Source: a virus
Taxonomy: Duplodnaviria > Heunggongvirae > Uroviricota > Caudoviricetes
Length of the DNA stretch: 64,000 nt
IMG/VR virus record: IMGVR_UViG_3300046522_000750
Reading direction: 5' to 3' (one strand)
A program made the translations under genes and the position numbers. Below, in pieces: positions 7,504 through 59,453 of this stretch. Each line of letters starts with the position of its first letter. Position 1 is the first letter of the stretch. The notes under the pieces were generated by a model, which saw only the letters and a list, made by a program, of their open reading frames with translations, made no database searches and was not told the DNA's origin.

Positions 7504-7533
7504 ACTGTACGGGATGAGCGATGATCGGGAAAA
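7504..7533 (-). promoter_or_regulatory. Shared-regulon promoter TTTTCC-N8-GCTCA-N5-TACAGT upstream of the family B/A block
   Basis: Lies within a 39 bp segment (7502-7540) duplicated at 9167-9205 with 36/39 identity; same GCTCA-N5-(-10) geometry as the family C/D promoters. Confidence 0.6.
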
Positions 7534-7553
7534 GCACCTTGGACACAGGGCCA

Positions 7554-9143
7554 TCAAAGACCCATGGCGCCTTCCAGTATCTCGCCGCGATCCTTCGCCG
7601 GCAGCAGGGTCATGTGCTTTCGATCCAACACGCCCAATTCAATCAGCGGCTTGATGCCGGCCTTGTAGCCCTTCAGGGCATTGAGGATGGTGGCTTCATC
7701 GTAGGTCTCCACCAGCAGCAGCAAGGCTTCCTTATGATTGAAGCCTGAATCGTTCAATCCAAAGAACTGACCAATTGGCCTGATCTTCGACGCCTCTGCA
7801 ATGGTTAAAGGCCTATCCGGCTGATGCAGTTCGGCGCACAAGCGCACCGCAATCAGCTTGAACTGATCCTCTTTATCCACCTGGTCGACCGGCTTCATAT
7901 GCTTGGCAAACGATTCATCGTACGTGGCCATTTTGGCGTAGAGGATGAGCACCTTACGACTCAATTCACTTCGGATGGCTTCCCGGCCCACCTGCACAAT
8001 CTCCGCATGCCGTGGATCGTCACCCAGCAGATTGAGGCTTTCAGCCAGCGACTTCAGACCCTTTTTATCGGACAGATCGATGTACAGATCTTTCGCTTTG
8101 AGCGCTGGGAGCATCATCGCAAAGGAGACAGAGATGTCCGATGGCTTTGACAGGCCATAATTACGATCAAAAACTCTGCCAAGGTAAGGACTGCCCAACA
8201 ATCGATTGTTGAATAGCTCATGCAGATCGAGAAAATTCTGATCTTGCAGAATGCCCGCGTTGTCCTTGGTGATCCATTGGGAGGTCAGGTAATGATAGAT
8301 GCCGTCGCATGAGACAAATCGGCTGAATTCCGATTCCTTCATGGTGACCAGGGTCATCAACGTGTTTGTTGGTCTGATTTTCAGCGCAAAGACAAGGTTG
8401 ACCAGGTAATCGCGGGACATCTCTGGCAGCCCCTTGACCACCCCGGCGTCAATCTGGTGCGGAACGCACTGACCATGGAGCGCCGGGTTTTCGGTAATGA
8501 CATTGGCTATCGCCACGTAATCATCAAAATGCAGCGCTGCGAGCTCTTTGAGGTGATTATCATACGGCTCATCCTTTCTTAAATTCGTCAGCTCAGCGCG
8601 CAGATGCCGAATGCCGATGTTGCCTATGTCCGCGCTCGCCAAAAACCTTGCAGGAGAAAAACGCTTGAACAGCTTCAAATTCGCCGAGTAGCTGTCGAGC
8701 TTTTCCTGGCCGCTGGCAAACGACCTGGCGCCTGAACGAATTCTAGCAAACTCATTGTTGTATACCGCCGACATGGAGTCGATAGCAAAGCCCTCTCCAT
8801 AGTGATCCGCTGCCTTACGAACAATTTCAAGGTGCCCGGCAGATGGCTCTTTACTGCTGGTGAACAGGCAATCACGCACGGCCATCGCAATTTCGAGGTT
8901 GTTTTTCACCCCAGGAATGTCAAACACCCCAAGCTCAGTCGCCAGCTTGAGCATGGGGCCCGACTGCCTGGTGATCGAGTAATCGAGCAGGAAAAGCGAA
9001 AGCTCCTGACGCATATCTGCCGGCACCTCGGCCACCAGCTCTCTGAGCTTGCTTTCATTGTCATCGCGCAGGCGCATGCAGGCGATATTGATCTCACTGA
9101 ACTGCTCACATTCCGTGAAGTTTTCGTATTTGAAAATGCTCAT
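7554..9143 (-). CDS. Family B hypothetical protein (~529 aa), C-terminus GEILEGAMGL
   Basis: ATG at 9143 (MSIFKYENF) with a GAGG RBS matches the paralogue start; the track ORF begins at 9260. Confidence 0.85.
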   Translation of the reverse strand: MSIFKYENFTECEQFSEINIACMRLRDDNESKLRELVAEVPADMRQELSLFLLDYSITRQSGPMLKLATELGVFDIPGVKNNLEIAMAVRDCLFTSSKEPSAGHLEIVRKAADHYGEGFAIDSMSAVYNNEFARIRSGARSFASGQEKLDSYSANLKLFKRFSPARFLASADIGNIGIRHLRAELTNLRKDEPYDNHLKELAALHFDDYVAIANVITENPALHGQCVPHQIDAGVVKGLPEMSRDYLVNLVFALKIRPTNTLMTLVTMKESEFSRFVSCDGIYHYLTSQWITKDNAGILQDQNFLDLHELFNNRLLGSPYLGRVFDRNYGLSKPSDISVSFAMMLPALKAKDLYIDLSDKKGLKSLAESLNLLGDDPRHAEIVQVGREAIRSELSRKVLILYAKMATYDESFAKHMKPVDQVDKEDQFKLIAVRLCAELHQPDRPLTIAEASKIRPIGQFFGLNDSGFNHKEALLLLVETYDEATILNALKGYKAGIKPLIELGVLDRKHMTLLPAKDRGEILEGAMGL

Positions 9144-9168
9144 CGCCCACCCCTCTTGGTCATACCCC

Positions 9169-9198
9169 ACTGTACGGGATGAGAGAAGATCTGGAAAA
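9169..9198 (-). promoter_or_regulatory. Shared-regulon promoter TTTTCC-N8-TCTCA-N5-TACAGT upstream of 7554..9143
   Basis: Second copy of the 39 bp upstream element. Confidence 0.55.
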
Positions 9199-9410
9199 GC
9201 ACCTTGTTGGTTTGGCTTCAAAAAACAAGCGTTCTGCCTGCCATATGGGCCTGACTTCAATGAGTGTCGCCTATATAGTCGATATAACGCCTCAAAAGGC
9301 TTGTCATAACGTCAATTTCACCGATCATTAATAATGTTCAATTGCCGTGACATAACCAAATTGTTATAAAGACCGCAGGAATATGGTTATCAATCGGAAG
9401 GATCAAATAG

Positions 9411-57081: not shown

Positions 57082-57108
57082 GAAGGAAACCAAAACAGGA
57101 ACGCGACC

Positions 57109-58263
57109 ATGACATCGAATAGACCGGACAGCCTCACCGTACCCAGCCTGGAGGCCTATCCGTTCATCGATGCCCTGCATTTCCATCACAACGTGTCGTT
57201 CAAGCACAACGTACTGCAGCAGGACTTGATCCCTAGCTCAAAACAAGACGAGGAGTTTCAGACTCTTTACTTCGATTGCCCAGCCTACATCAGCGATCCT
57301 CAGGTGGCTGCTGTTCAGGCACTTTCGGATGAAACCTTCACCCAGCTGTTCAAAATCCTTGAAGTCAGGACGTTTGGCGTAAATATCGAGACCAGACAAG
57401 ACCTGGAGAGAGTCGCAGCTGCCAACCTTGGGCGATTTAATGCCGAGGATGATCCCTTCACCATTGACCAGCTTCAGACCTACATCCTCGCCGGCGCGCT
57501 GACTACCAACGACATTCATTGGGCAAAGCTCGCCGAGCTGTACAACGCGTCCGAGCCTGATCAGAAGGAAGCGATTCACCAATACTTCCTGCAATGCCAA
57601 AACCGCAACCTCAGCGACTTGATGGATACCCCCGCCCTGGAGATCGCCCTACCAGAAAGCCTTCAAGAAACCTTCCAGTCCAAAGAGATGGATGGCCAGA
57701 CATTCCTGTTCAACGAAACTAAGCAGCAGTGGGTGCGCGAAGACATTTTTAGTCGCCAGTTCACTGTGAGCGGCTTTCACCGGTCGACAAAGACCCACTC
57801 CATCCTGGCTTCTGCCCCGACCTTGCGCCAAGCCATCGCCAAAGCCACTGTTTACACTGAAAAGGCCAGGGGTGGCATGGCAAGCGATCTCGTTGTTTTA
57901 CGCGAACAAGGCAAATACCTTGCCCAGGGCGAGATGAAGATGCGGGATAAGCATGAAGACGACTGCGACATCATGGAATTGCTCGTGGCCCCACAAAAGC
58001 TCAAATGGAACTTCGAGCAATTGGGTCAAGACCTGGGTCACTTGAAGATCAAGGAGGAGAAGCTGCGCGAGGAGATTCGCCGCTGCCATGACGAAAACAC
58101 CGTGTCTCAGCTTAAGGAGCAAATTAACGAGATCGAGCTCAAGCTCGACAGGACGGTCGAGGTGTCTGAAGTTGAATTTACCAAGCTGGTTTTCGCTGTA
58201 GAGAAGATCCTGGGCCTGCAATGGAACCGAGTCTCCCGGCTTGAAGACGCGCTTGGGCTTTAG
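57109..58263 (+). CDS. Family C paralogue 16, tail WNRVSRLEDALGL
   Basis: Family motifs; AGGA RBS before 57109. Confidence 0.85.
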   Translation: MTSNRPDSLTVPSLEAYPFIDALHFHHNVSFKHNVLQQDLIPSSKQDEEFQTLYFDCPAYISDPQVAAVQALSDETFTQLFKILEVRTFGVNIETRQDLERVAAANLGRFNAEDDPFTIDQLQTYILAGALTTNDIHWAKLAELYNASEPDQKEAIHQYFLQCQNRNLSDLMDTPALEIALPESLQETFQSKEMDGQTFLFNETKQQWVREDIFSRQFTVSGFHRSTKTHSILASAPTLRQAIAKATVYTEKARGGMASDLVVLREQGKYLAQGEMKMRDKHEDDCDIMELLVAPQKLKWNFEQLGQDLGHLKIKEEKLREEIRRCHDENTVSQLKEQINEIELKLDRTVEVSEVEFTKLVFAVEKILGLQWNRVSRLEDALGL

Positions 58264-58318
58264 GTTCTCGCCGTTCTCATCGACATACTAAAACAAGAAC
58301 AACACAAGGAACGCGACA

Positions 58319-59404
58319 GTGACCGCCCATCAAATAACCCAGCCAGCCCTTGAGGACTACCCCTTCATCAGCATTGTATTCCATGGGGATAGCACGGGCT
58401 TTAAAACTGCCGAAGGTTTCGACGTGGCTGGAGATCCAAGACAGCGATCAAAAATCATCGAAACTCATTTTGGCTGGGCTGGCGACATCACGGTGGAACA
58501 GCTCGCCCCATATGAAGCCATGACGGATGAAACCTTTGCGGGCTTGGCCTCGATACTTTCCATCAAATGTGAAAACCAGGAAATCAAAGAGCGTTCAGCT
58601 CTTCAGTATTCGGCTTACAAAGATAGCCATTATTACATCCCGGACGATCAGAATCGGGGCCCCTATTCACCCACACAGCTTGAGGCCTATCTTCTTGCCC
58701 GAGCTACCTTCTCAAAGAACATCCATTGGGGAGATCTCGTAAGCTTCTTCAACCAATCTGCTGAAGACCAGCAGCAAGCCATCAGCCAATACTTCGAGAA
58801 ATACCATGGCTTTGATCTAGAACCACTGCTCGCTTCCAAAGCCAAGGCATTTGAGCTACCGGAAAGCCTGCAGATGCCGGTTGAGACGAAAACCCACAAG
58901 GGGTGCAACTACCACTACAGCGAGGTTTTGCAGAAGTGGTTGCGCGAAGACCGCTACCACCAGCAGTACCGTGTCGACATCGTTAGTGATGTGTATCGGA
59001 CTCTGATTGCCACGGCACCGACACTGTCACAGGCGTTGGCCAAGGCGATAAAGCATTTCGAGGAGAACAAATATCCCATCGACTTTGAGCATTGCGAGAT
59101 CCTGCAGGGCGGCCTGAGGATAGCCATGGCTACGTTTGAGTCCAGGGGCCATGACATCGCCCTAAGCGACTACAACCCACGCCTGGTCAAGCCGGTATGG
59201 CTTCTAGACGATCTTGGCGCCGAGAAAGAGATCACTGAGAAAAAGACCGAGCTCTGTCTGACTGACGAGCAGGTTGAGGCGATGACCAAATACACCACGC
59301 CGATCATCAAAAACGACTTCATCAGGACTCTGTTTGCCGTCGAGAAAGCCGTTGGGGTGCAGTGGAGCAAGGTGAAACACCTGGAGGATGCGCTGGGCCT
59401 GTGA
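58319..59404 (+). CDS. Family C paralogue 17, tail WSKVKHLEDALGL
   Basis: Family motifs; GTG start with AAGGA RBS. Confidence 0.85.
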   Translation: MTAHQITQPALEDYPFISIVFHGDSTGFKTAEGFDVAGDPRQRSKIIETHFGWAGDITVEQLAPYEAMTDETFAGLASILSIKCENQEIKERSALQYSAYKDSHYYIPDDQNRGPYSPTQLEAYLLARATFSKNIHWGDLVSFFNQSAEDQQQAISQYFEKYHGFDLEPLLASKAKAFELPESLQMPVETKTHKGCNYHYSEVLQKWLREDRYHQQYRVDIVSDVYRTLIATAPTLSQALAKAIKHFEENKYPIDFEHCEILQGGLRIAMATFESRGHDIALSDYNPRLVKPVWLLDDLGAEKEITEKKTELCLTDEQVEAMTKYTTPIIKNDFIRTLFAVEKAVGVQWSKVKHLEDALGL

Positions 59405-59423
59405 GTCGCTACCTGCACAGGCG

Positions 59424-59453
59424 TTGCTTCAGAACATGAGCAACACGGATACT
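59424..59453 (+). promoter_or_regulatory. Shared-regulon promoter variant TTGCTT-N8-GAGCA-N5-GATACT
   Basis: 18 bp spacer; pentamer matches 3/5. Confidence 0.5.

Follow-up and report, generated by a model that had tools for sequence, protein, structure and literature searches.

Regulons of secretion substrates are known in which one promoter box is shared by many genes, among them the HrpL hrp box, the HrpX PIP box and the PmrA sites of Legionella and Coxiella Dot/Icm substrates. Phage T4 middle promoters rely on sigma appropriation and on a MotA box, which replaces the −35 element at about −30. A third described system is the Z-element, a 5-bp block of the spacer at −22 to −18 that is contacted by the beta' zipper of RNA polymerase and matters most where the −10 or the −35 element is weak; the known Z-elements (AACCT, AACAT, AATGT) have an approximately 2-fold effect and a loose consensus (Yuzenkova et al. 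2011, PMC3173786). Here we describe a three-block motif, TTG-N11-GCTCA-N6-ATAMT (M = A or C), found ahead of genes for tail-tagged proteins in a 64,000-nt stretch of DNA, IMG/VR record IMGVR_UViG_3300046522_000750 (hereafter, the window). By sequence comparison, the motif probably represents a set of working promoters of the sigma-70 family that have been kept by selection, with GCTCA as a third recognition point and the tagged genes co-expressed.

The locus resembles each of these systems in part. As in the secretion-substrate regulons, many unrelated or diverged cargo-like genes stand under one promoter signature that can be used to find members; their boxes, however, match ours in neither sequence nor position, and the sites described here retain TTG at −35 and have their distinctive block within the spacer. 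With the T4 middle promoters it has in common a sigma-70 −10 element plus an extra asymmetric box, which in T4 is read by an accessory factor, but the present sites retain TTG at −35 and have their box near −20. The Z-element is the best positional match in the literature for GCTCA, given a 5-bp block at −22 to −18 in promoters whose core elements are likewise weak; it differs in its loose sequence and modest effect, whereas GCTCA is near-invariant. Few natural promoters have a pentamer in the spacer that is conserved to the same degree as their −35 and −10 elements.

A three-block motif upstream of tail-tagged genes

The tail LExxLGL forms the C-terminus of 32 open reading frames (ORFs) in the window. 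The tagged families are as follows.

3-5843, minus strand: family A, tail-tagged array
5846-7477 and 7554-9143, minus strand: family B, two tail-tagged genes (B1, B2)
37601-60499, plus strand: family C, 18 tail-tagged genes in a tandem array
54355-56983, minus strand: family D block, tail-tagged operon with its first ATG at 56983

Pairwise protein identity among the family C paralogues was 23-41%. No match to Pfam at threshold was obtained for families A-D, the sole hit being a sub-threshold DUF4116 in one family A member.

The full motif occurred in the window as eight exact matches and one with a single mismatch, against 0.17 expected from shuffled sequence; its core, CTCA-N6-ATAMT, occurred 10 times against 0.52 expected. 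A weight matrix trained on 12 family C sites and one family D site scored these 13 sites at 19-31 bits, and the next best position on both strands of the window (128 kb) reached 13.8 bits, inside a gene. Each of the 13 strong sites is followed at a distance of 26-33 nt by the start codon of a tagged gene (twelve in family C, one in family D), and no site of 14 bits or more was found with this matrix in approximately 32 kb of untagged window DNA. The window is 64 kb of a 1.13-Mb replicon, and the specificity of the motif was scored within the window only. The spacer between the −35 and −10 positions is 18 bp in 12 of the 13 sites and 19 bp in the other. The motif is confirmed as real and, within the window, as specific to the tail-tagged families C and D and, in a variant form, B.

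A first-pass annotation of this DNA had listed 15 motif sites, and all of them are present. The twelve that it described as having TTG exactly 18 bp before the −10-like hexamer are eleven C sites and the D site, and its count of ten exact GCTCA blocks 5 bp before the hexamer holds. A weight-matrix scan of the kind that it proposed separated the 13 C and D sites from everything else in the window, and its conserved pentamer at a fixed spacer position was borne out by a pairwise identity comparable to that of the −35 and −10 blocks. Its broader statement, that all tagged families have the motif in common, is correct for families C and D. Family B carries only a variant, which the C/D matrix scores below zero, and the generality is further limited in that C is a single paralogous family, D a single operon and B a variant present in duplicate, family A being without a promoter of its own.

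The sites are listed below; L004, L006 and L007 denote metagenomic sequences with orthologous arrays, and bits refer to the C/D matrix.

38621..38650, plus strand: putative C-type promoter before C2 (ATG 38684); exact motif, 27.1 bits; orthologue retained in L004
39678..39707, plus strand: putative C-type promoter before C3 (ATG 39741); exact motif, 25.9 bits
40763..40792, plus strand: putative C-type promoter before C4 (Shine-Dalgarno-supported ATG 40820); exact motif, 30.1 bits; orthologue in L004
41850..41880, plus strand: putative C-type promoter before C5; 19-bp spacer, ACTCA; 19.0 bits in the −10 register
45179..45208, plus strand: putative C-type promoter before C8 (ATG 45236); exact motif, 26.1 bits; retained in L006, L004 and L007
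46317..46346, plus strand: putative C-type promoter before C9 (ATG 46375); exact motif, 30.5 bits
47528..47557, plus strand: putative C-type promoter before C10 (ATG 47587), which would serve C11 and C12 too; exact motif, 27.3 bits
50896..50925, plus strand: putative C-type promoter before C13 (ATG 50953); TCTCC variant, 29.0 bits; L007 orthologue TCTCA
51986..52015, plus strand: putative C-type promoter before C14 (ATG 52045); CCTCC variant, 23.5 bits
53154..53183, plus strand: putative C-type promoter before C15 (ATG 53212); exact motif, 28.4 bits; retained in L006 and L007
57052..57081, plus strand: putative C-type promoter before C16 (ATG 57109); exact motif, 31.3 bits, the highest-scoring site
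59424..59453, plus strand: putative C-type promoter before C18 (ATG 59480); GAGCA variant, 24.7 bits
57006..57035, minus strand: putative family D promoter, for an operon that runs from its first ATG at 56983 down to 54355; a single mismatch (GAGAAT), 22.8 bits
7504..7533, minus strand: putative B-type variant before B1 (ATG 7477), heading the family A array too; TTTTCC-N8-GCTCA-TCCCG-TACAGT, −0.5 bits
9169..9198, minus strand: putative B-type variant before B2 (ATG 9143); TCTCA variant, −4.6 bits; retained in relatives
37545..37574, plus strand: weak or decayed copy ahead of C1, with which the array opens; GTG..CCTCT..AATAAT, 0.8 bits
58276..58289, plus strand: remnant ahead of C17, lacking TTG; CTCA-N5-ATACT, shorter by one base

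A weak copy at 20674-20703 (minus strand; TCG..TCTCC-N6-ATAAT, 12.3 bits), with a pentamer region like that of the 50896 site, is followed after 32 nt by the ATG of an untagged gene of 305 codons' product length (305 aa; 19724-20641), for which a sub-threshold radical-SAM match was obtained. This copy may mark an untagged gene that belongs to the set, or may have arisen by chance.

Conservation of the motif

Because the twelve family C sites precede paralogues of a single tandem array, the motif might be a passive residue of tandem duplication, reflecting common descent of the intergenic DNA without present function. The pattern of identity among the sites is not what such a residue would leave: across the 13 C and D sites, pairwise identity was 0.95 for TTG, 0.80 for GCTCA and 0.88 for ATAMT, while the two spacers (0.27 and 0.37) and the flanks (0.25 and 0.31) were randomised. 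The motif also occurs on the opposite strand, ahead of family D, and the copies that have lost it look decayed. Orthologous family C arrays from metagenomes, with protein identities of approximately 77% (L006), 65% (L004) and 53-55% (L007 and L011), have the motif before the matching genes as well. In the L004 and L007 orthologues, substitutions were observed at 3 of 117 block positions versus 55 of 153 elsewhere in the 30-mer, a 14-fold lower rate in the blocks (Fisher p = 1e-12). At the 46317 site the first spacer has been rewritten in L004 and L007 with all three blocks intact, and the L007 orthologue of the D promoter retains TTG, GCTCATCAG and GAnAAT. Passive duplication residue is ruled out for practical purposes because the orthologues, and the 46317 site in particular, keep the blocks while the spacers change; we consider that reading scarcely credible. 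That the C and D sites would be promoters under strong purifying selection, with the pentamer a genuine third element, is well supported.

Proposed promoter architecture and comparison with known classes

Every C and D site lies ahead of an ATG with an AAGGA-type ribosome site, and in 10 of the 13 a conserved A stands 7 nt after the −10-like hexamer. With this A as +1, the hexamer falls at −12 to −7, GCTCA at −22 to −18 and TTG at −36 to −34. Both A at −11 and T at −7 are present in all 13 sites, TTG is invariant in 12, and CTC is near-invariant in the sites and in their orthologues; positions 4-6 of the −35 element are unconserved, and C occupies −13 in seven sites. The −12 base is G in eight sites, A in two, C in two and T in only one; G at this position in most sites is unusual for sigma-70. 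We infer from this layout that the sites act as promoters, with transcription starting at the conserved A.

The features in common with sigma-70 and sigma-S promoters are TTG at −35, an 18-bp spacer, A at −11, T at −7, and a purine 7 nt downstream of the hexamer as the putative start. The differences are that only three of the six −35 bases are conserved, that T at −12 is nearly absent, and that the spacer holds a third, invariant block. When the 12 C sites were scanned with a lenient sigma-70 consensus, only four (39678, 47528, 50896 and 51986) passed, since only TTG and ATAMT match; this pass rate fits weak core elements that need help. The spacer itself had been described in the first-pass annotation as suboptimal and the promoter as non-canonical, a description that does not survive comparison with E. 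coli, where promoters with an 18-bp spacer rank second in both frequency and strength, the normal range being 15-19 bp (PMC8695583).

In the mechanism that we propose, each promoter would consist of three blocks at set positions: TTG (about −36 to −34), GCTCA (about −22 to −18) and nATA(A/C)T (−12 to −7). These would be followed by a likely start at the conserved A seven bases downstream and by a 20-26 nt leader ending in the ribosome site. TTG and ATAMT would make the ordinary sigma contacts but be deliberately weak (three of six bases in the −35 element, G for T at −12), and GCTCA would be the third recognition point common to the promoters, such that the tagged genes of the lineage are co-expressed.

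Other promoter classes fitted poorly. MerR-type promoters likewise hold conserved information between −35 and −10, but have a 19-20-bp spacer and a dyad operator; a MerR-type promoter or SoxR dyad was rejected on the 18-bp spacer, a first-spacer identity of 0.27 and the absence of symmetry. For sigma-28 (FliA; TAAA-N15-GCCGATAA), the TAAA positions are unconserved, though some −10 regions resemble CCGATAA. For sigma-32 (CTTGAAA ... CCCCATNT), no AAA follows TTG, the last T is shifted by one base from its expected place, and a C-run occurs in only 2-3 sites. Conserved columns corresponding to sigma-54 (GG-N10-GC at −24/−12) were not seen, and extracytoplasmic function (ECF) sigma, HrpL, PIP, PmrA, MotA, Fur box, CII and T7-type promoters were excluded by position or sequence.

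The motif could instead act at the level of RNA, as a processing or translation signal in a read-through polycistronic transcript. The short intergenic gaps without terminators mean that it is probably transcribed from upstream as well. RNAalifold, however, returned a consensus structure of 0 pairs, the block spacing fits −35/−10 geometry, and no same-strand gene lies upstream of the copies before D and C16, which occupy a divergent gap. This reading is thus very unlikely, if marginally less so than duplication residue. The divergent pair (57006-57081) consists of two sites back to back, 16 bp apart, each oriented toward its own gene, and fills a 95-bp gap between opposite-strand genes that is the only gap between the two units.

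Organization of the arrays and the family B variant

The promoters proposed here would be distributed one per gene or per unit of two to three genes in the family C array; one would head the family D operon, and a variant would head each family B gene, that of B1 also driving family A. No intergenic terminators were found in the C array, and C11 overlaps C10 by ATGA; the array divides into transcription units that would each hold one to three genes. The one site with a 19-bp spacer, at 41850, has a canonical orthologue in L006 (18 bp, GCTCA), which indicates that the window copy is slightly decayed. The weak site before C1 has a counterpart in L004 that is likewise weak (11.8 bits).

Two further observations concern the start of the C array. 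The 37545-37574 sequence holds TGGCAC, a hexamer like the −24 element of sigma-54 promoters, and a matching −12 element was not seen. Directly upstream of the array lies a run of approximately 12 small same-strand ORFs (32127-37502), the first encoding an HTH_37 protein; in L004, too, a run of small ORFs lies ahead of the C array.

Upstream of B1 and B2, in the window and in the syntenic sequences L073, L074 and L076 (whose B1 orthologues are 62-89% identical), we observed TTTTCC-N8-(G)CTC(A/C)-TCCCG-TACAGT, in which the N8 varies. The geometry is that of the C and D sites (hexamer, N8, pentamer, N5, hexamer), and both hexamers differ; family B therefore has the pentamer and its placement in common with C and D, not the whole motif. 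The B1 and B2 sites count as one observation because they are near-identical copies of each other. Family A follows directly behind B1 with a 2-nt gap. A 15-base scan of genome contigs with the B-type core gave chance matches only (expectation approximately 1000). In the same part of the window, the region upstream of the RNase II-like gene rnb (9714-9873) is nearly fully conserved across L073, L074 and L076; in contrast to the tagged-gene promoters, it has a canonical TTGACG −35 element and no GCTCA block.

The motif in related megaplasmids

A Rep3-type initiator is encoded at 13415-14494 on the minus strand of the window and is 46-53% similar to the Rep proteins of three Pseudomonas megaplasmids (0.9-1.2 Mb), pMPPla107 among them; by this kinship the 1.13-Mb replicon is a Pseudomonas-type plasmid. 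Megablast of 32 kb of the window against PLSDB returned no match. On the complete FeN3W plasmid (CP136011.1, L027-L072), a variant tail, K[KR]xx[ILV]xxx[DE][LF]x[LI], unlike LExxLGL, stands at the end of approximately 100 ORFs; the tag system is therefore common to the plasmid family.

Taken together, the evidence makes it more probable than its alternatives combined that the sites are selected, working promoters with GCTCA as a third recognition point and co-expressed tagged genes downstream. Several observations weigh against this, and we list them here. Six of the 18 C genes (C1, C6, C7, C11, C12 and C17) have no site, their best scores being 0.8 bits or less, and C1, the first gene of the array, is among them. 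All twelve C sites derive from a single ancestral promoter, which speaks for selection for function and not for independent recruitment; there are only about three independent promoter origins (C, D and B), and B differs in both hexamers. The distant sister megaplasmids carry sigma factors and tagged genes without the motif: the strict form had no match in the three (3 Mb). Upstream of the approximately 100 tagged FeN3W genes we found no shared k-mer, gapped dyad or −22 pentamer, a negative result weakened by gene starts that were guessed from ORFs rather than annotated. In the window, where only one of these three tests, that for the −22 pentamer, was rerun as a control, GCTCA came out on top. 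The looser GCTCA-N6-ATAMT was considered as a FeN3W counterpart (nine matches versus two in the control) and rejected, most matches being inside ORFs and one promoter-placed.

The link between tag and motif would at most be a feature of the plasmid lineage of the window. The single regulon of tagged genes suggested in the first-pass annotation is a hypothesis: in the window all 13 strong sites precede tagged C or D genes and family B has a variant, and on FeN3W no shared motif was found. Within its lineage, a shared and easily scored promoter signature would provide an independent handle on the tail-tagged proteins of plasmids of approximately 1 Mb. It could be used to list the members of a regulon, untagged helpers included, it predicts co-expression, and it could serve as bait for a regulator.

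Possible readers of GCTCA

GCTCA would presumably be read by one component common to these promoters, and a dedicated regulator or sigma for the motif is plausible. If the sites are indeed promoters, the chance that the reader is a factor dedicated to them and encoded by the plasmid, either a sigma or an adaptor bound to RNA polymerase, is a little less than even; a Z-element-like contact by RNA polymerase itself is possible but appreciably less likely, and a repressor or other DNA-binding protein is improbable.

The Z-element-like alternative holds that the polymerase, through the beta' zipper or sigma region 3, reads GCTCA as a basal contact that offsets the weak −35 and −10 elements; no dedicated regulator would be involved, and the genes would be constitutive or follow host sigma-70 or sigma-S. 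GCTCA agrees with the Z-element in size and, within approximately 1 bp, in position; no regulator gene was recognised in the window, and the ATACT variants together with C at −13 fit a tolerance of the sigma-S type. AACCT and AACAT are unlike GCTCA, however, and a loose consensus of 2-fold effect is hard to reconcile with a near-invariant CTC. A generally favourable contact should also recur, yet the 3 Mb of Pseudomonas megaplasmid DNA held no strict match. We therefore regard this alternative as doubtful. If true, no natural Z-type element would be a clearer case than GCTCA.

Silencing of costly genes is common on large plasmids, and GCTCA might be the core of a repressor site, an operator overlapping the promoter by which a plasmid silencer holds the tagged genes inactive pending a signal. 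A position between −35 and −10 is the classic one for a repressor. Against this, conservation extends over just 5 bp, a dyad is absent and the adjoining spacer is at random-level identity, whereas typical dimeric repressors need at least 12 bp with symmetry; silencing of this kind seems decidedly improbable.

A fuller proposal, in which the promoters form a class of the plasmid lineage and GCTCA is read by a group-3-like plasmid sigma or adaptor that switches the tail-tagged, probably exported, set as a regulon, is one that we hold tentatively and judge rather unlikely in its entirety. The dedicated activator, sigma or adaptor put forward in the first-pass annotation could not be tied to the motif: a Pfam search of approximately 60 window ORFs gave no sigma and one helix-turn-helix protein, HTH_37 (32127-32438), the only recognisable DNA-binding gene in the window. 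Each of the three complete sister megaplasmids, on the other side, encodes 2-3 proteins of the sigma-70 family, one of which (225-249 aa, with regions 2 and 4) is conserved among them.

L048:6276-6950, minus strand: conserved sigma-70-family protein
L202:1405-2151, plus strand: conserved sigma-70-family protein
L203:1051-1767, minus strand: conserved sigma-70-family protein

These orthologues are 41-45% identical and have at least 50 metagenomic relatives, several on contigs of 0.9-1.1 Mb. A profile search with this family-conserved sigma found no protein attributable to the replicon of the window among the matches listed. The plasmid sigma is a reasonable candidate for the reader. If a plasmid factor does read GCTCA, a new mode of promoter specification would be at hand, and if that factor is a plasmid sigma or adaptor, the megaplasmid would switch its tagged set independently of host promoters.

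Some minor observations concern regulatory genes. Some relatives of the 225-249-aa sigma are labelled sigma-32-like in their sources. In L007, a gene for a PapB-family regulator (82 aa; 10771-11019) has been inserted, with a 165-aa ORF, inside the family C array; the window has no counterpart of the PapB-like gene. On FeN3W, at approximately 849.9-852.1 kb (L199, L023), a second sigma-70-family gene (276 aa) is directly followed by a tagged gene, and GCTCA-N6-ATACT, the only promoter-placed copy of the core on that plasmid, lies 27 nt before the likely ATG of this tagged gene.

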